A stretch of 64,000 nt of DNA from a virus. A model generated the notes under the pieces. It was not told where the DNA came from. It saw nothing but the letters and a program-made list of their open reading frames with translations, and did not search any database. Where the stretch lies: IMG/VR virus record IMGVR_UViG_3300032240_001333, positions 1 through 64,000 of that record; one strand, given 5' to 3'. The translations under genes were made by a program, and so were the position numbers. Shown one piece after another: positions 8,167 through 51,559 of this stretch (positions are counted from its first letter, which is position 1; each line of letters begins with the position of its first letter).

Positions 8167-11100
8167 TGAGTTTTACACATTTACATGTTCATAGTTACTA
8201 CAGCCTTATGGATGGATTAAATTCACCATTAGAGTTAGCTCAGGCTGCAAAAGATGCTGGCCAAACTGCAATAGCAATTACAGATCATGGAACTCTTGCA
8301 TCTCATAGAGATATGCAATTAGCATGTAAAGAAATTGGCATTAAACCAATTTTAGGTGTAGAAGCATATATATCTCCAACAGATAGATTTGATAGATCAT
8401 CTAAAACAGATAAAAGTATTCAGGCATATAACCATATTATTCTTTTAGCAAAAAATATGAAGGGCTTAGAAAATATAAATATTCTACAGGAACTTGCATG
8501 GAATGAAGGGTTTTATCATAAGCCACGTATTGATAGAGAGGTTTTAAATGATTATAACGAAGGTATTATCGTTCTCAGCGGATGTCTTAATGGACTCATT
8601 AGTAAAGCTATCGATAAAGGTAACATGGAGGAAGCAGAACTTCTTCTCAAAGGTTTTAAACAAACTTTCGGACAAGATTTTTACGTGGAAGTGCAATCAC
8701 ATAACCCTATGGAGATCAACTCTGCCCTTTTAGAATTAGCAGACAAGCTTGGAATTAAAGCGGTGGCAACAGGAGATGCTCACTTTGCTAAGGGTGAAGA
8801 TAAGATATTAGAAGAGGCAATGCTTATATTGTCCACATCCCCTAAATCAGATAAAGAAGCAGATTTTGAAATGTCTAGAAATATGAATAATATGTTGGAT
8901 AGATTTAACTATCTTTATCCTGATCGTCGTATTTCATTTCAAGACTATAATTTATTTATTCAAAGCAGATCTGAAATTGAATTAGATTTTAATAATGCTG
9001 GAATTACAAGAACTGATATTTACGATAATACTATTGAAATAACAGAAAAAATTGGAGAATACGATTTTAACAGGGGATTAGATCTCCTCCCAGTACCTAA
9101 GACCAATGCTGACCAGAAACTGGCTGATATGGCCTTTGAAGGCCTAGAAAGGCTACGTCTAAGGGAGAACTGGCTAGGAAATGATATATATGATCAAAGA
9201 CTTATGGAAGAACTTGAAATAATTAAAGAAAAGAATTTTGCCTCATATTTTTTAGTAGTAGCAGATATGATTAATTGGGCTAAAGAAAATAATATTATGG
9301 TTGGTCCTGGCCGTGGTTCAGCAGCAGGTTCTTTGGTATGCTATGCCCTAGGAATTACAGATGTAGATCCAATTGAATATGATTTATTGTTTTTCCGATT
9401 TATTAATCCTGAGCGTAATGACTTTCCAGATATTGATACAGATTTTGAAGATCGTCGTCGCAAAGAGGTTAAAGATTATCTTAAAAAGAAATTTAAGCAC
9501 GTAGCATCTATTTCAACATACACATATTTTAAAGATAAGGGTGTTATTAGAGATGCTGCTCGTGTATTTATGGTGCCATTACAAGATGTAAATCGTGCAA
9601 TGAAATCAATTGATACATTTGAAGATTTTATGGAATCCCCTAATACAAAAGAATTTAGAATGAAATACCCAGAAGTAGTATGGCTTGCCGAAAGATTGCG
9701 TGGAAAGATTAGAAGCGTAGGAGTACATGCTGCTGGTGTTGTTGTTGCAAAAGATGATATTAGAAAGTTTGCTCCAATTGAATCAAGAGAAGATGCACAG
9801 GATAAAGTATCTGGAAGAATTCCAGTTGTTGCTTATGACATGGATACTGTTGCAGATATTGGTCTTATTAAACTTGATGCTCTTGGATTAAAAACTTTAT
9901 CTGTTATTTCTGACACATTAAAGGCAATTAAAAAAAGACATAATAAAGATATAGAACTCTCAAGCCTATCCTTAAATGATGCAGAAGTTTACAAAACATT
10001 AAGCGAAGGATATACAAAAGGTGTATTCCAAGCTGAAGCAACTCCATATACAAACCTATTAATTAAAATGGGTGTAGATAAATTTGAAGATCTTGCTGCT
10101 TCAAATGCTTTAGTTCGTCCAGGTGCTATGAATACCGTAGGTGCTTCATACATTAATAGAAAACATGGGCGTGAAGATGTAGAATATGTTCATGAAATTA
10201 TGAAGCCTTTTACCGAAAACACATATGGTGTTATTATATATCAAGAACAGGTTATGCAAGCTTGCGTACACCTAGGAGGGATGTCTTGGTCAGAGGCTGA
10301 TAAGGTCCGCAAGATTATTGGTAAGAAAAAAGATGCAAAAGAATTTGACCAGTTCAAGGATAAGTTTATTGATGGGGCTTCAAAGCACATTTCTAAAAAG
10401 AAAGCCGAATCGTTATGGCACGATTTCGAGGCTCACGCAGGCTATTCTTTTAATCGTAGTCACGCTGTTGCTTATTCCATGCTTAGTTATTATACGGCTT
10501 GGCTTAAAAAGTATTACCCTCTTGAGTTCATGTTTTCAATTCTTAAAAATGAAAACAATAAAGATGCTAGGACGGAATATTTAATTGAGGCTAAACGCCT
10601 AAACCTTAAAGTATTATTGCCACATATTAATGAATCAGATGTATATTTTTCATTAAAACAAAATGCTATTCAATTTGGATTAGCTGAAATTAAATTTATT
10701 TCAGATAGTATTGCAAATAAAATTATAGAAAGAAGACCTTATGAAACGTATGCCGATTTCGTTCAAAAAGCCTCTGCCAAAGGTAGTGGCATTAACAGTA
10801 GGGCTGTATCTGCTCTTAATGCTATTGGTGGTGCTGCTTTCGACGACAATATCAGAAGCGGTAAGGAAAAGGAAAACTACTACGAATATTTAGGAATACC
10901 TACATTTAATTTAGAATCAATTCCACCACGAATTAAATCACAGGCTAGACCAATCCAAGACTTTGACGATCTTGGATCATTCCCAATGTTTGGTATGGTA
11001 AAAAGTATTAAACGTGGAACTGGATGGGCACGTATAGAATTAGTAGATGAAACTGGATCAATTGGTTTATTCCATCATGAGCAAACTCAAATTGAAACTG

Positions 11101-27827: not shown

Positions 27828-28058
27828 ATGTTACATTTAAACGAACTTGGTGTAAACGTATTTATAAATAAATATAAATCATTAGTAAATGAAGCTTATT
27901 GGAATAATTACGATTTAATTATTTGGAAAAAAAATCAAAATGGATTTTTTAATGTAAAAGGAATGTTTAAAAATTCTTGGGGCACAGCAGATAAAGTATC
28001 TGTAAATTATAATGGAATGTGGGTTTTACCAAAACAATATGTCAAATATTTTAAATGA
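27828..28058 (+). CDS. Hypothetical protein
   Basis: Preceded by TTGACA-N18-TATAAT and AAGGA. Confidence 0.6.
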   Translation: MLHLNELGVNVFINKYKSLVNEAYWNNYDLIIWKKNQNGFFNVKGMFKNSWGTADKVSVNYNGMWVLPKQYVKYFK

Positions 28059-28350
28059 TTTAGGTGTTGATAAAGACGATCTGGATTGGTGGCACCTTTC
28101 AGTATGTCGTGGCATGGATACTAATTTATTTTATGATAAATATGAAAATGATCCAAAGATTGCAAAAAATATAGATGAGGCATGTCTAGCGTGTCCAGTA
28201 ATATCTATGTGTTATAAAAATGGAGTTAGCAATAATGAATACGGAGTATGGGGCGGAGTTTATTTAAGTTCTGGCGCAATAGATAAAGCTAGAAATATTC
28301 ATAAAACACCAGACGTATGGAAAAAATTAAAGGCAAAGAATGTTCATTGA
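28039..28350 (+). CDS. whiB: WhiB-family Fe-S transcription factor
   Basis: C...CLAC PVISM C and GVWGG signature; likely start MSNIL. Confidence 0.88.
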   Translation: MSNILNDLGVDKDDLDWWHLSVCRGMDTNLFYDKYENDPKIAKNIDEACLACPVISMCYKNGVSNNEYGVWGGVYLSSGAIDKARNIHKTPDVWKKLKAKNVH

Positions 28351-40787: not shown

Positions 40788-41057
40788 TTATATTATAGGT
40801 TCATGTTGTTCTATTACTTCGGCTAGATGACTGGATAACATTAGGGCTTCTGATGTATATCCTTCCGCCCATGCCGTTTGGAAATTACCCGCCTGTTGTT
40901 TAATAACTTCCTTTATCAGTTCCATAAGTCTATCTTGAGTATATAGCGGTAGGTTATTAACAATAATACTAGCGCAAATCATTGGATTAAACCAATGATT
41001 ATCTAATACTACTTGTAGTTGGTCTACGATTTTTTCTTCATCTGTTTTCTTTGCCAT
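40788..41057 (-). CDS. Early-region hypothetical protein
   Basis: GAAAGAGGCGGA directly upstream; TATAAT promoter near 41082. Confidence 0.65.
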   Translation of the reverse strand: MAKKTDEEKIVDQLQVVLDNHWFNPMICASIIVNNLPLYTQDRLMELIKEVIKQQAGNFQTAWAEGYTSEALMLSSHLAEVIEQHEPII

Positions 41058-41150
41058 GTCCGCCTCTTTCTAGTCTTTGGATTATATCAAAAAAGTTGGG
41101 AAAGGTCAATAGTGATATGCGACTATCAACCCCTCCCAATGTTAGATAGT

Positions 41151-41291
41151 TTACTTGGTCTTAACCTCTGCAGTAAACTTGATGCCGTTCTTCTCGGCCT
41201 CTGATAGAGCTTGCTTGGCTGCTCCTGAGAAGCGACCACGCTTGCCGACAGTAATGCCCTTGCTTACTAGATATTCACGTTTTGTAGCCAT
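41151..41291 (-). CDS. Lsr2-like DNA-binding domain only, 46 aa (not in ORF track)
   Basis: MATKREYLVSKGITVGKRGRFSGAAKQAL... with the RGR AT-hook; AGAGGA RBS. Confidence 0.7.
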   Translation of the reverse strand: MATKREYLVSKGITVGKRGRFSGAAKQALSEAEKNGIKFTAEVKTK

Positions 41292-41293
41292 TT

Positions 41294-41725
41294 TTATTCC
41301 TCTTCTAATATAACAGGTTCCGCCTTGAAACCTGGTTCTTGCGTTCCATATTCAGTTGTATTATCTGACTCCTCGTCAGAATCTTCATCCAGCCATCCGT
41401 CGTCTTCGAGGGCGGCAAGGAAATCATTATCAATCATCCAATCAAGAATTGCCTCATCAACAGCCTCCGCACCATATTCAAGGGTAAAATCACTTGGCGG
41501 GTTGGCCCAGAGTTTATCCCAGATAACATCTAGAGTAGTATTAGCAGTTATTACAAAGTCATTGCCAAAATCATCTTGAGAATAATTATTAAACTTATCT
41601 TTAATTACATCCCATACCCATAGCCATACTAATGACATTGGAACATCCATGCCATTTAAAGTATCGACAATTTGGTCCAATTGCATTCTAATCTTGACAC
41701 CACGGTCATATTGTGCATTATCCAC
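41294..41725 (-). CDS. Acidic early-region hypothetical protein
   Basis: CAACGAAAGG leader upstream of GTG. Confidence 0.65.
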   Translation of the reverse strand: MDNAQYDRGVKIRMQLDQIVDTLNGMDVPMSLVWLWVWDVIKDKFNNYSQDDFGNDFVITANTTLDVIWDKLWANPPSDFTLEYGAEAVDEAILDWMIDNDFLAALEDDGWLDEDSDEESDNTTEYGTQEPGFKAEPVILEEE

Positions 41726-41972
41726 GCTGTTTTGCCCTTTCGTTGATAGCGAATGCTAAATTATACGTCATAACATACAAATCTGTCAATGCGTCCATAC
41801 GTCCTTCAAAATAAAATTTATCTGCAATATTATCAGAATCACCTATTTCCGATAGTTTTGTTTCACATTCATACATCCAATTTTTTAATTCACCATGCAT
41901 GATGTTAGTACCTGTTTCTCCCAGGTCAATCAGCTTTTGAAGATGTGGGCTTAATTCATCAGACATTATCAT
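41718..41972 (-). CDS. Early-region hypothetical protein
   Basis: ORF track; operon packing. Confidence 0.6.
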   Translation of the reverse strand: MIMSDELSPHLQKLIDLGETGTNIMHGELKNWMYECETKLSEIGDSDNIADKFYFEGRMDALTDLYVMTYNLAFAINERAKQRG

Positions 41973-42394
41973 TTGCTACCTCCAATAAATGTTCTATGGC
42001 AAATATCTGTCCTTGTATATAATGCCAATCAATTGAATCATCTTTTAAAGATGTCTTTTCAATTAGTTCTTTATCTTGTTCAAGACTTATTAAATGAAGT
42101 TTCATATATTCGATTAAATTAGTCATGGATATCTTTCTGTCCAGTTTCTCTATTATGAATTGCATATACTCCGCAATCACAATTAAAGTATCCTGGTGTG
42201 TCGGTGCATTCCCATTTATGACTATGCATGATCGAAATACCCCTCAGCCCATAGTCCTTGCAAGAAACTGTTTGCCATTTCTAAATCGCTTCTAAGTTCT
42301 GTCTTATCCATTAAATTGGACGGGGTCCTAAGATAAAAAAGTTTTGCGTCATGTATAGCATTAATCATTCTATTTAAATCATTTTCAGTATAAC

Positions 42395-42604
42395 CTAGCA
42401 TAAGAAGTACTCATCCCCTTCTTTATATCCATAATATTCATTATAAGATTGTCTTACATTATCAGGAGCAAATTCCATAAATTTAAATTCAGCATATTCT
42501 TCGCCTTCATCTAAATTAGAATTATTCCAGTCTTCAAACAATTGCTCTTTTATATCATGCTGGATAGAATCTATTAGCATTTCATTCATATCATCTGTAA
42601 ACAT
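42395..42604 (-). CDS. Acidic early-region hypothetical protein
   Basis: Own TGTCAG-N10-TATAAT promoter and AACGAAAGG leader. Confidence 0.7.
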   Translation of the reverse strand: MFTDDMNEMLIDSIQHDIKEQLFEDWNNSNLDEGEEYAEFKFMEFAPDNVRQSYNEYYGYKEGDEYFLC

Positions 42605-42760
42605 TTTTCCCCTTTCGTTATGGCTTAATTATATATCAGACCACTGACATTTGTAAATAGAATATTGGTGTGTTTCACACCACATTGTCCAAAGATTGAG
42701 ATTTCCAGGAAATTTACTTGACATCCGTAAAACAGATATGATACCCTCACCAGCTGCGGG

Positions 42761-42894
42761 AAATAAGAAACCCCCCAGCCGAGACTACTGGGGGATTAAG
42801 AGAGTGGCTGCTAGGACCTCAACGAAAGGAAAAGCCTGCTTTACTTAGCAACTAGATAAGTTGCACCACTCATATGAATAGGCACCCTGGGCCT
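42761..42894 (-). ncRNA. Candidate trans-acting antisense sRNA 1 (anti-AACGAAAGGAAAA)
   Basis: TGCTATAAT promoter (42901-42909), several stems, UUUUCCUUUCGUUG in a predicted loop, terminator CCCCCAG/CUGGGGG plus U-rich tail. Confidence 0.75.
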
Positions 42895-42911
42895 AATCAA
42901 ATTATAGCATA

Positions 42912-43316
42912 TTAGACGAGCAGTCTCTCCAATGCATACTTCTCACAGAATGATGTGAGATCCATGGTAAAGATTGCTTCATTCTTCATACCTAAAACTT
43001 TATTCTCTAAGTTGCGATGATCATCTTGCTCATGCAATGAGAACGTTTGGTCCTTCCAATTAATAACAGCGATCTTGTGCTCATTGTCACCAATTGAATT
43101 TACCTGCAGACCCCAGCCTGTTTCCATGTTCCATTGGTCGCCGATCAAATGACTAATAGCAATACGTGTTGCATATGATTCGTCATTCCATCGAGGACGT
43201 GCTGCAATAACAGCATCCGCCAATTTACCTAACATGTTATATCCAGCCCAGTGTCCGTATAAGCAGATTGTATCTCCTGCTCCATCAACGAATACGTAGT
43301 TTGCTCTATCTCCCAT
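42912..43316 (-). CDS. Early-region phage protein
   Basis: MGDRAN...LYGHWAG; AGGCGGA RBS. Confidence 0.7.
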   Translation of the reverse strand: MGDRANYVFVDGAGDTICLYGHWAGYNMLGKLADAVIAARPRWNDESYATRIAISHLIGDQWNMETGWGLQVNSIGDNEHKIAVINWKDQTFSLHEQDDHRNLENKVLGMKNEAIFTMDLTSFCEKYALERLLV

Positions 43317-43507
43317 TATATTTCCGCCTTTTCTAGTTGAGGTGTTTCTTCCGTTTTGTTTAATTCTATCATTTCATAGGCCCATTTGTCTAGAGCCTCT
43401 GAATTACTATTTCGGTGATGTCCGCAAAATGCCAGCTCACCTGATGTGCTACGGGCTAACCATTTAGCCTGAGCTGAGCATGAATCACATTTGATCCATT
43501 CGCTCAT
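43316..43507 (-). CDS. Small zinc-finger protein
   Basis: CDSC...FCGHH. Confidence 0.65.
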   Translation of the reverse strand: MSEWIKCDSCSAQAKWLARSTSGELAFCGHHRNSNSEALDKWAYEMIELNKTEETPQLEKAEI

Positions 43508-43875
43508 ATCTTGTTTTCCTCTATCATATCTGATAGGCGGTCAAGGAGCCAAGAGTCGATATCCGCTAAGTCTATCTCTCTTAACTTCTCAATGATCTCC
43601 TCACGAGCAAATTTATACCCGTCATCAAAACCATCTTTATACTCAGACATTTTCTCCCCTAACATATGCTAATTCATTCTCAGCATAATCTTTTTCATTT
43701 AATACTGTAAGATTGTGAGTTTGAATTAACTTGCTCACCTTCTCAATATTACCTGTTCCGATCTCGAATGTCAAGGACTTACGGTCATGAGAATCAGGAT
43801 CAAGCCCCATGACCTCCGCATCCCATGAGGCTCTATGGAAAGCAACATTACTATTTGCTTTTAATTTATAAAACA

Positions 43876-44328
43876 TTAGTTCCAATCCACATCTGTGTCT
43901 TCAATTGACCAATCATTTACTTCAACATCGCTTCCATATGATGTTAAAGTAAGTTCATCTCCAAGTTTGTAATGAGCGTCAAAGTTATCAACCTCATCAA
44001 GTGGAACCTGAACAGTTACTTCAAAATTAATAGTTCCAGTTACTGTAACTGTCTTTGATAATTCAAATCCAAACAGTTCTGCTATTTGTTGAAGCGCTTC
44101 TTCCTTTGTATAATTAGGATTATATAATTCAACTAGAAGTTCTTCTAACTCATTAACCTTTGATTTAAGGCTATGATAGTTATCATTAGCACGACGACCT
44201 TGATCTAAGGCCCATTCTAAATCAACTACCTTATCGGTAATATATTCAGGTGCTTCAGGTGCTGCGTAGGTTCCTGCAATCTTCTTGTAAGTCACAAGTA
44301 GATTAGGATTGTATGTTTCTATTGACAT
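43876..44328 (-). CDS. Early-region hypothetical protein
   Basis: CAACGAAAGGAAA leader. Confidence 0.7.
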   Translation of the reverse strand: MSIETYNPNLLVTYKKIAGTYAAPEAPEYITDKVVDLEWALDQGRRANDNYHSLKSKVNELEELLVELYNPNYTKEEALQQIAELFGFELSKTVTVTGTINFEVTVQVPLDEVDNFDAHYKLGDELTLTSYGSDVEVNDWSIEDTDVDWN

Positions 44329-45086
44329 TAGTTTCCTTTCGTTGTAGTAGTGGTTAAGTATACATTATGGGTCTGACATTCCGCCATAGCATCTTCATCC
44401 TGCCAAGAGCCTTGATTACATTCTGAGCAGAATTCTCCGCATCCGTCTTCACAATAATCTATTGTGTTAAAAGATTGGCAGGCATAACATCTGTTTTCAT
44501 ATTCTAAGTTTTCATTAACTTCACCACGAACAATCTCGTATTCACCACCCCAACCAGTCTCTTCTTCAAATTCAAGGGTTAATAGAGAGTTTGGAACAAG
44601 ATTGCTAAGTTTAGTTAATATAGTAACGGCAGGTGACCAAGCAGTATTATATTTATAGATAACCCAGTTGTCTTCACCCTCTGATGTATATTCAAGTAAT
44701 TCAGTATCAGGATATTCATCTTTGTCTGCTACGGCAACATCCCATTTTGTTCCCCAGTTAGTTGTATTCCAGTTATACCAATCTTTCTGAGTTTTAGCAT
44801 GCTCCATTTCTTTATCAAACCAATCAGGTTGATTTGTAGAAATTCCAAGTCGTGCAGGTTGTTGAACATATTCTTGCATTGTAATACCATCTTGTAATGG
44901 AGAATGTATATTCCAAAATGCAAAGACAGGATTAGAGTAAGTAGATTCAGTTACTTCCATTTTATTAGTTTCCATGTTCCAACTATCGTGCCATACCATA
45001 AATGGCTCGTTAAGTTTATCTTTGATAAAATCTATCTCAGACTTTGGTCCTTGGATTGTTAATGTGTTATACACCCAGTTAGGCAT
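44328..45086 (-). CDS. YubB/DUF1281-like ferredoxin-fold protein
   Basis: MPNW, WYNWN..NWGTKWD, YNTAWSP; start corrected to MPNW behind the leader motif. Confidence 0.7.
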   Translation of the reverse strand: MPNWVYNTLTIQGPKSEIDFIKDKLNEPFMVWHDSWNMETNKMEVTESTYSNPVFAFWNIHSPLQDGITMQEYVQQPARLGISTNQPDWFDKEMEHAKTQKDWYNWNTTNWGTKWDVAVADKDEYPDTELLEYTSEGEDNWVIYKYNTAWSPAVTILTKLSNLVPNSLLTLEFEEETGWGGEYEIVRGEVNENLEYENRCYACQSFNTIDYCEDGCGEFCSECNQGSWQDEDAMAECQTHNVYLTTTTTKGN

Positions 45087-45210
45087 ATTATTCCTTTCGT
45101 TGATTAGCGCAATTGTATCAGAGTCGACTGACATTATCAAGGATTTCCAGGAATTTTATTGATGTTCTCATAAAAGCGAAAAAAGGCCCTTAGCTATTGG
45201 GGGCAGCTTG

Positions 45211-45284
45211 CGATCCCAACGGGACTTGAACCCGTAGCCTTTACCGTGACAGGGTAACGATCTAACCAATTGATCTATGGGACC
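45211..45284 (-). tRNA. tRNA-Asp(GTC)
   Basis: Acceptor GGTCCCA/TGGGATC, anticodon arm TTACC-CTGTCAC-GGTAA, T arm ACGGG-TTCAAGT-CCCGT. Confidence 0.92.
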
Positions 45285-45315
45285 TAGATGTGGGGCCCTT
45301 TCGGGCCCCATTTAT

Positions 45316-46323
45316 TTATACTAGTTGCAGATTATTTTGTACAACTTTTAACAAGCGATTTTTTTCTGCGTTAATTACAGGATTGAAACCACTTGCAGAT
45401 GCTAAAAGAGTTTCAGCATTTCCACGGCGATGCCAATCTAAACGCTCAGTTAAAGCGTTAAATGCTCCCCATGCATTACCAGCGATCATGTGATTAAATT
45501 CGCCAGTGTAGATATCATTAATGAGATCAACTTTCGTTTCCCATTTTTTAATTGCGCCCTTAGTATCTTTTGTAGGCTTAGGGTACGCAGCCAAAATAAT
45601 ATCGTTAAATTGTTGAGCGGTGATTTCTTTTTGAATCATCTGCTTAGCCATGATATCGAATTTATCCATGTATGAATTCGCAAGACCTAAAGCCTCACGA
45701 GCCACACGCACACGACCTTCAGCAGATTGTGTATGACGGATTTTGAAAGATTGCTTAACGCCATCTTTCTTTTTGATATTGCCCATCGCAAGATTTAGCG
45801 TGTTAGCGCATACAACACGAACGGGTGTTATAGATGCTTGAATAGCAATTGAGCCATCATGTGATGTATTAATAAGCAGATAAGTTTTAACAACATCTGC
45901 CACGCCACTAGGATCAAGAACGGTTTCACGCTCTAATGCTAATGAGCCGAATACAACACGACCGCCACGAATTGAGCCAGCAGTCTCCCAACGTCCACCG
46001 CCATCAAGAATATTATCGCCGAATGCGAATAATTCTTCATTTTGCAATGGTACATAACGCTCACCGACAATTCCTAAAACATCGGTTTGTGTTTTGTCCG
46101 TAGGATTAGTACGCACAACATATTGATAGTTTTTATCGCTTGTTAATGTAGATGGAATTTCTAATTCCTCTAAGCGAACATTCCAACCATTAAGGTTAGC
46201 GGTTTCTAGCATTTCGCTAGTTGTTTTTTCTTCTGTGAACACGGTACCTAAACCATGCCACGCAGGTTCACGAAATGATGCAAAAGAAGTTTTGCCATTT
46301 TGTGATTCTAGTTCATGAGCCAT
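45316..46323 (-). CDS. DUF932/DUF945-family phage/plasmid protein
   Basis: REPAWHGLG, ETAGSIRGGR, NTSHDGS, TPVRVVCANTL, RHT. Confidence 0.85.
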   Translation of the reverse strand: MAHELESQNGKTSFASFREPAWHGLGTVFTEEKTTSEMLETANLNGWNVRLEELEIPSTLTSDKNYQYVVRTNPTDKTQTDVLGIVGERYVPLQNEELFAFGDNILDGGGRWETAGSIRGGRVVFGSLALERETVLDPSGVADVVKTYLLINTSHDGSIAIQASITPVRVVCANTLNLAMGNIKKKDGVKQSFKIRHTQSAEGRVRVAREALGLANSYMDKFDIMAKQMIQKEITAQQFNDIILAAYPKPTKDTKGAIKKWETKVDLINDIYTGEFNHMIAGNAWGAFNALTERLDWHRRGNAETLLASASGFNPVINAEKNRLLKVVQNNLQLV

Positions 46324-46460
46324 TTATTTTCCTTTCGTTTAATGTAGCGTTATTCTAGCATACATGACTGACATTTGGCAATATCCTATCCGACACGCCA
46401 GGGATTTTAAAAGCTTGACTTAAAGCAGAAAATGCCCCCACAGTATCTGGGGGCTTTTAA

Positions 46461-46679
46461 TTAAGAAATGACTAACGATTTAAAATCGGTTGGAAAAAAC
46501 ATTGCCAGAATCTTTTTCTTTTCAACATTGTCATATACATATGCTTTGACATTGCCCTGGAACTTATTTAGATTTTTTCTAACAACTTTATTTAGCGCTT
46601 CACGATTTAATATATCATTAAAATGTAAAGTTAAATCATGAGCTTTGTTAGCATCATAGATTTCTACACGATACCGCAT
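46461..46679 (-). CDS. Early-region hypothetical protein
   Basis: AAAAGGAAA RBS; TAGACA-N18-TAAAAT promoter. Confidence 0.6.
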   Translation of the reverse strand: MRYRVEIYDANKAHDLTLHFNDILNREALNKVVRKNLNKFQGNVKAYVYDNVEKKKILAMFFPTDFKSLVIS

Positions 46680-46751
46680 TTGTTTCCTTTTGTAGTAGGG
46701 AGAACTATTTTAACATAGGGGGCTAGATTTTGTCTAGCCCCCATTTGTTTA

Positions 46752-47174
46752 TTATAGATATTGAGCGATAGCGTTGTAAGTAGAAGTTGAAACTACTTCC
46801 TCATCTGTCATTTTCAGAATACGGATAGCGTTTTCAATTTCATCTTTTGTAGCCTTGTAAGTATGAACATGGAAGGTTTCAAAATCACGCTCAGGTTGCT
46901 TAGGAAAATCCTTCTCGTCAATTTTTAAGTCAAAATCAACATTGAGTTGGTTATTCCATGAACGATAATTTGTGCGGACATTTTCCGCTTTTGAGATATT
47001 ATCAAGAGCAAACTTAACAATATCTTTATTCCACTTAGCCAAAGTCTTTTGATACTTTGCCTCGTTCTCGTCTTGTTTCTTATAGTTAGTTTCAATTTCT
47101 GCTAACTTAGTTTCTAAAGCCTTGATAACTTTAGGTGTAGCGATTTTAACGCTAATTGCTTTTTGTCTTGACAT
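46752..47174 (-). CDS. Early-region hypothetical protein
   Basis: Complete promoter plus leader cassette. Confidence 0.75.
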   Translation of the reverse strand: MSRQKAISVKIATPKVIKALETKLAEIETNYKKQDENEAKYQKTLAKWNKDIVKFALDNISKAENVRTNYRSWNNQLNVDFDLKIDEKDFPKQPERDFETFHVHTYKATKDEIENAIRILKMTDEEVVSTSTYNAIAQYL

Positions 47175-47241
47175 GTATTTCCTTTCGTTAGGTTGGGTTT
47201 ATTATAGCGGACACCACCGACAAGCGGTGTCCGCATATTAC

Positions 47242-47385
47242 TTAGTTTAGAACTACTGAAGTCCAGCGTTCTTTGCCATTTACATCTAGCAAGATACGAG
47301 CCACTCCGCTTGGGTGATTATCAACGGCTTTGATAATTCCAGTAATACCACTTGTAGTGGTTGTGTATAGTTGTCCGATTTCCAT
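47242..47385 (-). CDS. Early-region small protein (MEIGQLY...)
   Basis: Start corrected to the ATG following the leader motif. Confidence 0.65.
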   Translation of the reverse strand: MEIGQLYTTTTSGITGIIKAVDNHPSGVARILLDVNGKERWTSVVLN

Positions 47386-47436
47386 TTTTGTTTCCTTTCG
47401 TTTATGGGTTGTTATTATAGCACCTGCCACCGACAA

Positions 47437-47706
47437 TTAGTAATCGGTTTCAGGTAGCCACGCTTCTAGGTGGTGAGCCTCGATAATTGCTAAGGCAGGA
47501 GCCTTATCTCTGCCCCTATATGACACGCCTTGAGGCATATCTATCAGGCGATCATAGTCCTCATCATAGTACGCATCTATGGCATCAATACATGGTTGTA
47601 CCATTGATAGCGGAACGGGTGGATAGTGATTACCTTGTAAGTGATAACCAATAGCCATTTCTAAGTCTAAGTTTTCTGCTAAGTCTATTGCTGTATTTAA
47701 TCCCAT
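47437..47706 (-). CDS. Early-region phage protein
   Basis: HLQGNHYPPVP motif; AGGAG RBS. Confidence 0.7.
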   Translation of the reverse strand: MGLNTAIDLAENLDLEMAIGYHLQGNHYPPVPLSMVQPCIDAIDAYYDEDYDRLIDMPQGVSYRGRDKAPALAIIEAHHLEAWLPETDY

Positions 47707-47982
47707 TTATTCATTCTCCTCTAATATAGTTTCGGATAAGTTTTCTATTTCGTTAATACTATCCGTCATCTCTTTCATCTCGGTTTCGGATAGTAATACT
47801 TTAGTAGTTAGGTCTGCTGTTTTACTAGCAAGACTAGCAGAATAAAGATAAATTAACTTTGCGAAAGTTTTATCATCTATTTCATTTCTGCGTTCCATTA
47901 AGTCCCCTGCTAAGGCTGTAATATCATCATTAAATACTGCTTCCTTAGTTGCTTCTGATATTGCTATGGCTGTTGCTAACAT
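47707..47982 (-). CDS. Early-region hypothetical protein
   Basis: Promoter plus leader cassette. Confidence 0.7.
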   Translation of the reverse strand: MLATAIAISEATKEAVFNDDITALAGDLMERRNEIDDKTFAKLIYLYSASLASKTADLTTKVLLSETEMKEMTDSINEIENLSETILEENE

Positions 47983-48034
47983 ATTTTCCTTTCGTTGGTG
48001 ATGGGCTGATTATACACCAGCCCACCGACATTTA

Positions 48035-48295
48035 CTAAGCCAGTACTATAAGAGCCTGCGTAGCAAACTCATTAGCAATATCTAACTTTGCTTGGATTTC
48101 ATCTCTAGTCATATCGGCAGGGTTACCGACAAACTCAGTAATTGCGCCTTGATTGTAAGTTGCAAACCTACCAGCAGGCAAGTTTTCTACTTTTGGATAA
48201 AACTCACCTTTTGGATCTAATAAAGAGTTAAACTTAACTCCATTAACTTCGAATGGATAAACCACCCAATTAGTTGTGTCTAGCATTGTTTTCAT
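48035..48295 (-). CDS. Early-region hypothetical protein
   Basis: Promoter plus leader cassette. Confidence 0.7.
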   Translation of the reverse strand: MKTMLDTTNWVVYPFEVNGVKFNSLLDPKGEFYPKVENLPAGRFATYNQGAITEFVGNPADMTRDEIQAKLDIANEFATQALIVLA

Positions 48296-48565
48296 TTTAT
48301 TTCCTTTCGTTTAAGTAGTGGAATTGTAGCAGATCTAACTGACATTTTGTTGCGACACGCCGTCAGCTCGTAAAAATTTTCAGGGTGTTTTATATCACAT
48401 TCTTAACGACACGCCCGACCCCGCAGTATTTGCGGGCAAAGCCCCCTTTTGTCAAGGGGGACACGCTGGTTATTTAATAACACTCTCCACATAATGGATA
48501 GTAATATTCGCCATCATCAGTAATAAACTGAGTGGTATCTTGATTGCAAGATGAACATTTATTCA

Positions 48566-48775
48566 TTATAAATCCCCCATTTCTGCGTCAGCCATGCGTG
48601 TATTCATATGATCTGCATCAATATCACGCCAGCCAAAGTAAGCCATTTCTGACATATCATAACATTCAGGGCAGACATAATCGTCGCCAAAGATTTCATA
48701 TTCCTCAATAGTTTCGAAAGTCTGAGTAGCACCACAGATTTCGTACATTAAGCAAGCAACTGTTAGATTTTCCAT
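48566..48775 (-). CDS. Early-region acidic zinc-ribbon protein
   Basis: Cys pairs; promoter plus leader cassette. Confidence 0.65.
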   Translation of the reverse strand: MENLTVACLMYEICGATQTFETIEEYEIFGDDYVCPECYDMSEMAYFGWRDIDADHMNTRMADAEMGDL

Positions 48776-49025
48776 TTTAGTTCACCTTTCGTTAAGTAAT
48801 GGAATACTAACACATCACACTGACATTTCCAAATCGACACGCCGAAATTTTCAGGGCATTTTTATCATGTGTCTTAAATCACAAAACGCCCCCACAGCTT
48901 TTGCGGGCTTTTTCTAATCTGTCAAGTCGACACGCCGTTTATGTTTTAATTTTCTTGTGTATTTTTTTTTATTGCGAACAGGTTGGGCCGCATTGCTGCG
49001 GCGTAATTCCTGAATGCGTTTTACT

Positions 49026-49217
49026 TTATTTAGAAGAATATTTTGGCACATGATAACCGCTTGCTTCATGAAATTTAACAACATCAAAACGCTCATTATC
49101 TTTTGCAAACATTTCTGCAAAATCGTGAACAGTTTTAGAAAAAACAGCGGGATGAATTTTATCGCTGATATATTTTAAAATTTCAGCGGTTGCGATATAG
49201 TCTTTACGGGTCATCAT
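49026..49217 (-). CDS. Early-region small protein
   Basis: MTRKDY...A....DN.RFD..KF pattern. Confidence 0.65.
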   Translation of the reverse strand: MMTRKDYIATAEILKYISDKIHPAVFSKTVHDFAEMFAKDNERFDVVKFHEASGYHVPKYSSK

Positions 49218-49413
49218 TTTGCGGACACCAATCCAATCAAGTTAAAATTTTTAGTATACATTTTACCATTAGGCATAGTTAAATTATATCTTGCGTTTTC
49301 TACGGCAAAGCCATGATCTTTACATCTAGCAAAAGCCTCAAACGCTTGAAGAGCATCAGAAAATTCATGGGTAAATTCTAATTTCCCATCATAGTAAGTA
49401 AATAATTTATACA

Positions 49414-49545
49414 TTAGATCACCCACTCATCTAAAACACAATCACAACTTTCAACATCATAATTTTTTTCATCGCCCCAAAATACAAATCCTGCGCCACC
49501 GCATTCTTCACATTCAATTGCGATTATTTCTTTTATATTTCCCAT
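49414..49545 (-). CDS. Early-region 43-aa zinc-ribbon protein (not in ORF track)
   Basis: CEECGG.G...CDC; promoter plus leader cassette. Confidence 0.6.
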   Translation of the reverse strand: MGNIKEIIAIECEECGGAGFVFWGDEKNYDVESCDCVLDEWVI

Positions 49546-49598
49546 TTAGTTTTCCTTTCGTAGTTTGTTAATAGAATTATAGCGGATACCGCTGACAC

Positions 49599-49814
49599 CT
49601 AGTAGGTGTCAGGGTAAACATCTTCGGGTTTTCCAATCCCGATTACACGATATTTATTACGGATCATGCCCGTATCAATTTCGATTAAATAAGCATCAAT
49701 ATATCTGCCAAAAAAAGCAGAATGTTTTTCAGCAGAAACAATTTTTCCGCTGATAGTATCGGATGAATAAGTCCTACCGACTAGCAAGTCGGTGTGAGAG
49801 TAGATATTAGCCAT
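49599..49814 (-). CDS. Early-region hypothetical protein
   Basis: Promoter plus leader cassette. Confidence 0.65.
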   Translation of the reverse strand: MANIYSHTDLLVGRTYSSDTISGKIVSAEKHSAFFGRYIDAYLIEIDTGMIRNKYRVIGIGKPEDVYPDTY

Positions 49815-49865
49815 AGTTAGTTTTCCTTTCGTTTATGGTGTAATTTTAACATAACCCACTGACAA

Positions 49866-50015
49866 TCAGTGGGTTGGCGTTTCCGCCATGATTAGTTTTA
49901 ATAAACCAATTCGTTGCGATTTGGTTAAATTTAATTTCGCAACAGTTTCGGATTTTATTCCGCCATTATTATATTCGAACAAAAGTTCGTTATAGATTTC
50001 GCTAAATTCTTTCAT
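49866..50015 (-). CDS. Early-region 49-aa protein (not in ORF track)
   Basis: MKEFSEIYNELLFEY...; promoter plus leader cassette. Confidence 0.6.
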   Translation of the reverse strand: MKEFSEIYNELLFEYNNGGIKSETVAKLNLTKSQRIGLLKLIMAETPTH

Positions 50016-50122
50016 TTAGTTTTCCTTTCGTTTAATAGTTTTATTCTAACACCTACCACTGACATTTTGCCTATTACTGACCAGTATTTGAGACAGTATT
50101 CGTGTGATCATAATCACACGAG

Positions 50123-50197
50123 TTATCCACGACACGCCCGAAGTTTTCCACAGATTTTCAGGGGTTTTCCACATCTGTGCATAAACCCTGTGGATAA
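50123..50197. promoter_or_regulatory. Cluster of five DnaA boxes
   Basis: TTATCCACG 50123, TTTTCCACA 50144 and 50165, TGTGCATAA 50176, TGTGGATAA 50189. Confidence 0.75.
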
Positions 50198-50969
50198 CGC
50201 CCACAAAAAGCTGCGGGCCAATGTCGCCATTGTCAAGGCGACACGCCGTCTATTTCTTGTGAGTTTCCTCACATACGCATTTGGTATATGCGCCAGCGTT
50301 TAACCTGCCACATTTAGGGCAGGTATAGAAACCAGCAGGATTAGTCATTTAACCCACCGCTCTTTACATCGTAGTAGATAGCGTAGACTAGGGCAGATAC
50401 TACACCTAGCAACGCTAATTGGATGGCGGTGGTGATTAGTCTATTTAGTGTCATTACTTACGACCTCTCCATATTTTAATTCCAGCAATTACTACAACAG
50501 ATACGATAATTAGTTTCCAATCTAGTGCGACATAGAACCAATCGCTATCTACGCAGAAACCATATGAGTTTAATTCAATAGTCATTTATTACTCCGTCCA
50601 GTCTAAGGTTAATTCTTGCTCTGCTAATTCATCAAGGCTAATTATATCGGTATCAAAATCGCTAACGATATCTTCATCGCCCTCTTGCTTGGCGATAGCC
50701 TCTCTCTCGTCCCAATGGCGGTATGCGTCTGCGATATCCGCTTGGATAGTGTCCCATTTAGTCATCATATTAGAAACCCCAGCAATCTGAGCAGATAACT
50801 ACATCGCTCTCATCGTAGAATATAGAGGACATCTCTACATCGCACACCTTACAATTTAAGGTGATTAGTGTGTCGTTCATTTTCTTACCTTCTTTCGTTT
50901 TTGTTATGGTGAAACCTTATCATACCCCACCGACAAAGCGCAAGCCTTGCCGATGTGATGTTGCTCACA

Positions 50970-51194
50970 TTAGTAGGCACCATAGGTGCCATCCTTTAGT
51001 GATTGGATAGTAGTCAATACATGGTCAATAGCCATCATGACTATCTCTTTATCAGAGCGGTCTTGATAAGCCCAATGATCCTTATAGTAGACATATGCTT
51101 GCTCATATGTCCAGCAATAAGTATCGTGATAATACTTAAGCGTAGGAGATAGCGTTTCATACGCCTCATTTATTTCTTTTATCATAGTTATCAT
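50970..51194 (-). CDS. First gene of the leftward early block, hypothetical
   Basis: TCAACGAAAGGA leader; long structured 5'UTR. Confidence 0.65.
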   Translation of the reverse strand: MITMIKEINEAYETLSPTLKYYHDTYCWTYEQAYVYYKDHWAYQDRSDKEIVMMAIDHVLTTIQSLKDGTYGAY

Positions 51195-51221
51195 ATTTAT
51201 ATCCTTTCGTTGATATATATT

Positions 51222-51273
51222 GAGCGGTTATTTGCTAGGCTCACCTTTCGGATTATTTGCTAGGCTCACGCTC
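51222..51273 (-). repeat. Structured leader with a 17-nt direct repeat
   Basis: GTGAGCCTAGCAAATAA twice, around CCGAAAGG, closed by GAGCG/CGCTC. Confidence 0.75.
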
Positions 51274-51559
51274 TAATTCTTTATTTAATTTATACTATAA
51301 TCATATAAGAGGGGACTGACATTTTGCAAGTCACAAATCGGACATGTCGGACATTTTGAAAACTTTTTTTGGAAAATCGTGTGATACTCCTCACATATGG
51401 TCGCTCTAAAGGGATAAATCGGACATTTCAAAATGGTGTATCATACAAAATAAAAATATATTAACATTTTGTGAAATCTGAAATACTAGTCGACTAGGAT
51501 TATATGTGTATATATGAGATATATTTTAGTTAACTAAGATATTAATGTATAATTTAAAT

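Follow-up and report, generated by a model that had tools for sequence, protein, structure and literature searches.

A promoter array resembling PafBC-dependent DNA-damage promoters spans a block of small genes in an uncultured family of actinobacterial phages

Introduction

In actinobacteria, the tuberculosis bacillus among them, the chief activator of the DNA-damage response is PafBC, and the only genes that it is known to control are those of host repair. The promoters that depend on it in Mycobacterium and other Actinobacteria (RecA-NDp, or recA P1-type, promoters) are served by a mode of activation termed "sigma adaptation" (PMC8635444; PMC11804915; PMC6789036). Their in vivo consensus is an element of 22 nucleotides (nt), tGTCgg(N10)tA(N3)T, the 3' part of which is the SigA -10 element (Mueller et al., PMC8635444) and the 5' part of which, at -23 to -28, constitutes a "-26 element" in promoters that have no -35 (PMC8635444). 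The GTC triplet of this element is contacted by the PafB arginines R46 and R50 of M. smegmatis, and PafBC is present in almost every actinobacterial species (PMC8635444). PafBC is activated by single-stranded DNA (ssDNA) (PMC11804915). Here we describe an array of promoters of the same form in a virus, namely in the first 64 kb (hereafter the window) of the 81,264-bp IMG/VR record IMGVR_UViG_3300032240_001333, which is estimated to be 75% complete. Literature searches combining RecA-NDp or PafBC with phage returned no report of such phage promoters.

Comparable arrangements exist in other phages. The host-takeover modules of the Bacillus phage SPO1 type are transcribed from ordinary housekeeping-sigma promoters with a -35 and share with the locus described here a dense promoter array, many small genes without recognizable families, and a location near the genome end. 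LexA-controlled temperate phages carry SOS boxes in their promoters, with LexA acting as a repressor in the service of prophage induction. They resemble the present case in that genes are wired to a DNA-damage regulator of the host; however, the putative regulator here is an activator, the genome looks like that of a virulent-type phage, and LexA boxes are not enriched. In the middle promoters of phage T4, a normal -10 without a -35 is combined with a replacement box (the MotA box at -30) that is read by an adaptor of sigma region 4 (PMC8635444), a layout similar to that reported here. In contrast to T4, which supplies its own AsiA and MotA adaptors, no such adaptor is recognizable in this phage, and the box is that of a host adaptor.

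A promoter array with a fixed spacer

The motif TGTCRG-N10-TAnnnT is found 15 times in the window, as against 1.15 +/- 1.03 matches (largest count 4) in 100 shuffles of the window that preserve dinucleotide composition. Fourteen of these matches lie on the minus strand within about 9 kb (42628-51321; P1 to P14 in Table 1). The 15th, on the minus strand at 9894-9915, is antisense within the DnaE gene and looks like a chance match. The spacer is strict: across the whole 81-kb record, a spacer of 10 nt yields 16 sites, 15 of them on the minus strand, whereas spacers of 6-9 and 11-14 nt yield 0-2 sites each (0-1 for the immediately neighboring lengths of 9 and 11 nt). An earlier note made from the letters of this stretch had proposed 13 such promoters; the array itself stands, and the count becomes 14. 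The near-absence of sites at other spacers bears out its invariant 10-nt spacer, and the example that it quoted at 47414-47436 (P9) is exact. The longer form TGTCRGTGG, which it called frequent, is seen in seven of the 14 sites. Unlike in the consensus with which it compared them (tTGTCRgtg), the base 5' of TGTC is mostly A and not T.

Thirteen of the 14 sites carry a conserved (A)ACGAAAGGA ribosome site 12-21 nt past the -10, and an ATG 23-33 nt past the -10 (again at 13 of 14) opens reading frames of 36-335 amino acids (aa). Thus, the claim that each site precedes a small gene holds closely for 13 promoters, with P1 being separated from its open reading frame (ORF) of 74 aa by a ~100-nt leader. 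In most of the 14, TG is additionally found at -15/-14, the mark of an extended -10.

Judged by its letters, the motif is the same as the published PafBC consensus in its hexamer, spacer, and -10 (PMC8635444), and the likeness to PafBC promoters drawn by the earlier note is therefore upheld: all 14 exact sites show the bipartite tGTCgg-N10-tA(N3)T form with an invariant GTC and the fixed 10-nt spacer. Like PafBC-dependent promoters, they combine a 22-nt bipartite layout and an invariant GTC with a housekeeping-sigma -10 and no -35 consensus, in a phage of a phylum nearly all of whose members have PafBC. Unlike the known examples, they are viral, number 14 in 9 kb, and stand before small uncharacterized genes rather than DNA-repair genes. 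They also differ in having no adjoining LexA box, in preferring A at position 5, in the A/T-rich flank before TGTC, and in the frequent TGn.

The earlier note had described promoters elsewhere in the window as TTGACA-N16-18 or extended -10 types. This claim is borne out in part: two consensus sigma-70-type sites (41789-41760 and 41109-41081) do occur toward the block's downstream end, but such promoters are enriched neither overall nor in the block (59 found versus 51 +/- 7 in shuffles). Boxes of the actinobacterial LexA type (TCGAAC-N4-GTTCGA, at most 2 mismatches) are not enriched in the phage either, with 2 found as against 0.8 expected. The phage promoters do not carry the SOS box of LexA-controlled promoters; the only near-match inside the block, at 49975-49990, lies within an ORF. 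This near-perfect box (TCGAACAAAAGTTCGT, 1 mismatch) falls in the 49-aa ORF downstream of P3 and, as a single copy, does not exceed chance.

Conservation in related phages and interchange with a -35 element

A search with the DUF932 protein encoded downstream of P11 recovered 470 related IMG/VR contigs, of which 80 loci were kept for motif counts. The gene strand of these loci has 544 sites, as against 51 for the opposite strand, and changing the spacer to 9 or 11 nt reduces the yield to 15 and 8 sites, respectively. Among the 369 unique sites of the family, the flanks and the sequence of the spacer vary freely, the TGTCAG form of the hexamer accounts for 88%, and TG is found at -15/-14 in 64%. 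A match to TTGACA of at least 5/6 at the -35 occurs in only 8-11% of the unique sites. Thus, as in the PafBC class, the -26 element generally takes the place of a -35, with a minority of sites carrying both. In three relatives that are 99-100% complete by CheckV (111-117 kb), all sites fall within a single ~10-kb block of one strand, and this equivalent block lies 0.3-14 kb from a contig end.

A comparison independent of the motif was obtained by locating the orthologs of the DUF932 gene by tblastn and taking the 110 nt upstream of each, which gave 57 unique regions. The motif is kept at a fixed distance from the gene in 44 of these. Of the 13 regions that have lost it, 11 have TTGACA or TTGACT 17-18 nt from the same -10, and a degenerate remnant of the box, such as TGTCTG, is often retained. 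A perfect -35 is present in 8/13 regions without the box as against 9/44 with it (Mann-Whitney p = 0.004, a generous value since the sequences are related). Because orthologous promoters without the box usually have a consensus -35, TGTCRG appears to stand in for the -35; on the same pattern, the -10 would be read by the housekeeping holoenzyme. This interchange fits an activator-type -26 element and is unlike what a repressor operator would be predicted to show.

Searches for a phage-encoded reader

The earlier note had offered as an alternative a phage-encoded WYL activator lying outside the window. None was found in the remaining 17 kb or elsewhere: the WYL family (PF13280) has no match in the 81-kb record or in the three complete relatives, and the same is true of Sigma70_r2. 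Sigma70_r4_2 gave matches below threshold only, in 57-70 aa ORFs of two of the complete relatives. Since the phage has no recognizable WYL protein or sigma factor, the PafBC of the host is the most likely reader of the array.

The phage and its candidate hosts

The record has a G+C content of 33%, and the window contains replication-type genes for a DnaB-type helicase, a DnaE-type polymerase, and ribonucleotide reductase, along with four tRNA genes. Among 50,697 phage records, none matches the putative early region at the nucleotide level, and the DnaE is closest to that of Streptomyces phages of Stanwilliamsviridae, at 57% identity. The window also encodes a WhiB-like protein (Table 1). The WhiB family is exclusive to Actinobacteriota and is regarded as an actinophage marker (PMC10202952). 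Because the phage encodes WhiB, its host is taken to be actinobacterial, and its 33% G+C points to a host of low G+C. A mycobacteriophage origin was considered and rejected on the G+C content, the lack of any nucleotide match among those phage records, and the distance of DnaE even from its nearest Streptomyces phage relatives. Thus, on its gene content and composition, the virus is a phage of an actinobacterium and not a mycobacteriophage. The assumption of Mycobacterium as host, implicit in the earlier comparison, is accordingly not sustained for an uncultured phage of this composition with no close cultured relative.

Actinobacterial genomes were reached by way of HGC69a, a 23S probe for Actinobacteria in general, whose matches fall in Actinomycetota records only. 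In the class to which Demequina belongs, 399 of the 401 genomes sampled carry WYL genes; this tally takes in nine unpublished genomes (G011, G026, G031, G034, G040, G245, G283, G342, and G364), which enter no other result. The 1.3-1.5 Mb genomes of the sample belong to one order. Of its 151 members sampled, all but a few fall within 1.1-2.2 Mb, and G+C in the stretches read is 44-51%. This candidate order fits 'Ca. Nanopelagicales'. Four complete genomes of the order have adjacent pafB- and pafC-like genes beside tatC. Their PafB aligns with the whole of M. smegmatis PafB (7P5X chain AY, 4e-39) and keeps the arginines of the RMFER segment that read GTC; their PafC matches 7P5X chain AX (9e-22) and also 6SJ9. 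The earlier note had asked for a check of the predicted host for pafBC; both genes are present in this candidate order, a putative phage-host pairing suggested by G+C and WhiB.

The box is also found in the genomes of the candidate order. In one complete genome (G131), cTTGTCAGTGG-N7-TAcctT is followed immediately by a LexA box, about 175 nt before recA-recX. The composite of the box and TCGAAC occurs in 126 of the order's 151 sampled genomes, in about two copies each, as against 5 control hits in all. Other boxes precede carD and a gene for a LysM protein. Since these sites precede recA, carD, and the LysM gene, the box appears to be a working promoter element in the order. It shares with the phage family the preference for TGTCAG and TGn. 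In many of the sites of the order, an ATG stands exactly 6 nt past the -10, the leaderless layout of actinobacteria. For the host sites, this spacing lends indirect support to the start 6-8 nt past the -10 that a box at -23 to -28 would imply. The phage mRNAs, in contrast, are predicted to have leaders with a strong ribosome site. The host LysM gene resembles the damage-inducible chiZ of mycobacteria. The carD box (TGTCAGCGATGGCTGGTAGAAT, G131:C1:81501-81522) lies 23 nt before its gene and is conserved in three genomes, being also found at G089:101229 and G202:64067.

In the complete actinobacterial genomes of 1.3-1.4 Mb, PafBC-type sites are further concentrated within a single ~50-kb region of lower G+C (44-46%), located at G131:C1:436001-492000 and at 450-474 kb and 411-432 kb of G089 and G247, respectively. 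The sites in this cluster precede, mostly in leaderless fashion, genes for a C5 DNA methylase, two tetratricopeptide repeat proteins, and a trypsin-like peptidase, as well as uncharacterized genes. From its contents, this region could be a variable or defense island under PafBC control.

Candidate reader of the array and alternatives

Taken together, these observations favor a model that we consider probable, in which the host's own PafBC reads the phage promoters. The 14 sites would then be promoters for the housekeeping RNA polymerase of the host, devoid of a -35 and with TGTCRG as the -26 element at -28 to -23. The PafBC heterodimer would act on them by sigma adaptation, with PafB on the GTC triplet and PafC on sigma region 4. 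Being always present in the host and switched on by ssDNA, PafBC would allow the ssDNA of the infected cell, arising from DNA ends, breakdown of host DNA, or phage replication, to turn on or boost the block. The ends of the incoming DNA, to which the earlier note had looked, would in this model be one of several possible sources of ssDNA. The near-consensus -10 and the frequent TGn would add some activity that is independent of PafBC.

Several observations weigh against this model. Part of the promoter activity may not need PafBC, because TGn, the extended -10, is found at 64% of the family sites, and 9/44 of the DUF932 promoters with the box have a good -35 as well. The statistical support from the -35 interchange overstates independence because the compared sequences are related. 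The base 5' of TGTC falls in an A/T-rich context here, as against the 'tT' of the RecA-NDp consensus that the earlier note had quoted. In the closest cultured relatives by DnaE, the Streptomyces phages BillNye and Samisti12, the motif is found 0 and 3 times, respectively, which is the control level. The link to the candidate order is likewise indirect: it is suggested by G+C and WhiB, with the phage DNA matching genomes of the order at tRNAs only (73-84% identity) and the phage WhiB finding no cellular relative in the genome contigs, all 467 of its homologs belonging to the phage family. Finally, because almost all genes of the block are without families, a small DNA-binding protein of the phage that escapes recognition could be involved. 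The dependence of these promoters on PafBC is thus a prediction from the shared form of the sites.

This last consideration leads to the idea that a phage factor missed by the family models, either a small activator or a sigma appropriator of the MotA/AsiA kind, reads TGTCRG, with the likeness to PafBC sites reflecting convergence or site mimicry. Such a factor has room to hide, since very few genes of the block have a family and many elsewhere lack one too. The weak helix-turn-helix-like matches in the 57-70 aa ORFs of two relatives point the same way, and the phage WhiB is itself the type of protein that binds sigma region 4. However, all 14 promoters of the block carry the box, the most upstream one included, so that the factor would have to be injected or first made from elsewhere. 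Moreover, the hexamer, spacer, and -10 all match a system found throughout the host phylum, and the complete relatives have no WYL or sigma gene. We therefore regard a phage-encoded reader as unlikely. A different proposition is that the SigA holoenzyme of the host reads the sites by itself, as constitutive promoters of the extended -10 type, and that TGTCRG is the site of another host protein or an operator, for example, for a later shut-off of the block. The extended -10 of 64% of the family sites, the near-consensus -10 hexamers, and the usable -35 of some promoters agree with this proposition; yet an operator would have no need to keep its spacer constant, to the single base pair, in 369 sites that have diverged, and a consensus -35 appears just where TGTCRG has been lost, as expected of an activating substitute for the -35. 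On balance, we consider this explanation quite improbable. It is also conceivable that the boxes are mainly decoys, which draw PafBC and RNA polymerase away from the damage and defense regulon of the host, with expression of the small genes being secondary. The -10 elements of the phage (TATAAT, TAGAAT, TACAAT) are indeed nearer to the consensus than those of the host (TACCTT, TATGTT), and PafBC-type promoters of the candidate order also precede island genes such as that for the C5 methylase. A pure decoy, however, would have no need of a fixed distance to a ribosome site and gene, and such an effect would add to the reading of the boxes by host PafBC without replacing it. We accord very little weight to decoys as the main role of the boxes.

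Beyond recognition of the sites by host PafBC, we tentatively propose a wider scenario, for which the case is somewhat less than even: a widespread family of large phages that infect abundant, low-GC aquatic actinobacteria, which lacks its own transcription factor for its takeover genes, might use the ssDNA alarm of the host, PafBC, at more than 10 promoters, and the same signal may drive a methylase/defense island of the host. Phage and host would then compete for one alarm, because the signal could drive the island too. If phages do use PafBC, infection itself must activate it, which would provide a natural trigger for this sensor. If true, this would be a novel means by which a virus sets the timing of its genes while supplying no factor itself, the first phage regulon under a WYL-type sensor, and the first viral use of the sigma adaptation of a host. 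It would also connect phage predation with the DNA-damage response in lake bacteria that are very abundant and offer compact, strong PafBC-responsive promoters that are usable as reporters.

The gene block and its other features

The 14 promoters belong to a block of genes that is oriented opposite to the replication genes at 1-40 kb (Table 1). In Pfam and PHROGs scans, its genes matched only DUF932, an Api92-like domain, and three unnamed PHROG families. The block is probably a host-takeover or early module. Its early timing is suggested by its appearance, that is, by the many promoters, the small family-less genes, the position near the genome end, and the orientation.

Table 1. Promoters of the array and associated features in the window
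Feature	Position	Strand	Sequence	Remarks
P1	51300..51321	-	TGTCAGTCCCCTCTTATATGAT	leader of ~100 nt, then 74-aa ORF 50970-51194
P2	50914..50935	-	TGTCGGTGGGGTATGATAAGGT	then 36-aa ORF 50770-50880
P3	50043..50064	-	TGTCAGTGGTAGGTGTTAGAAT	then 49-aa ORF 49866-50015
P4	49843..49864	-	TGTCAGTGGGTTATGTTAAAAT	then 71-aa ORF 49599-49814
P5	49576..49597	-	TGTCAGCGGTATCCGCTATAAT	then 43-aa ORF 49414-49545 and more small ORFs to ~48914
P6	48804..48825	-	TGTCAGTGTGATGTGTTAGTAT	then 69-aa ORF 48566-48775
P7	48323..48344	-	TGTCAGTTAGATCTGCTACAAT	then 86-aa ORF 48035-48295
P8	48009..48030	-	TGTCGGTGGGCTGGTGTATAAT	then 91-aa ORF 47707-47982 and 89-aa ORF 47437-47706
P9	47414..47435	-	TGTCGGTGGCAGGTGCTATAAT	example of the earlier note; then 47-aa ORF 47242-47385
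P10	47201..47222	-	TGTCGGTGGTGTCCGCTATAAT	then 140-aa ORF 46752-47174
P11	46352..46373	-	TGTCAGTCATGTATGCTAGAAT	5/6 -35-like TTGCCA at 18 nt; then 335-aa DUF932 protein 45316-46323, phrog_1221
P12	45112..45133	-	TGTCAGTCGACTCTGATACAAT	then 252-aa protein with Api92-like ferredoxin-like domain 44328-45086
P13	44357..44378	-	TGTCAGACCCATAATGTATACT	then 150-aa ORF 43876-44328 and four small ORFs to 42912
P14	42628..42649	-	TGTCAGTGGTCTGATATATAAT	then 69-aa ORF 42395-42604 and more small ORFs
Gene block	40788..51431	-		~35 small, mostly family-less genes; P1-P14, with consensus sigma-70-type promoters at its downstream end
WhiB-like protein	28012..28350	+		112 aa; marker of actinobacterial host
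CRP/GlxR-type palindromes	50103-50118, 50258-50273, 50954-50969, 51380-51395			four perfect TGTGA-N6-TCACA copies in 1.3 kb, toward the block's upstream end

A tRNA-Asp gene (45210-45284, minus strand) lies within the block between the DUF932 gene and P12 and, because of this placement, would be co-transcribed from P11. Between the genes of P13 and the promoter P14 (42761-42909, minus strand), a stretch free of ORFs is followed by a terminator-like hairpin (42797-42769). The region upstream of P1 (51340-51432, minus strand) has three copies of ATGTCCGA(T/C), two of them adjacent, and further copies of an element, GGCGTGTCG, stand 10-20 nt before P6, P7, and P11; both elements contain TGTC without a -10 partner. 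The leader of P1 (51225-51275, minus strand) carries a direct repeat, GTGAGCCTAGCAAATAA, in two copies about 20 nt apart.

The four perfect palindromes of the CRP/GlxR type are the only ones in the 64 kb, where by our own estimate about 0.1 would be expected by chance, and a copy with one mismatch is found at 48868-48883. Three of them are centered about 54, 75, and 94 nt upstream of the predicted starts of P2, P3, and P1, respectively. The palindromes may represent a second input from the host, namely cyclic AMP (cAMP).

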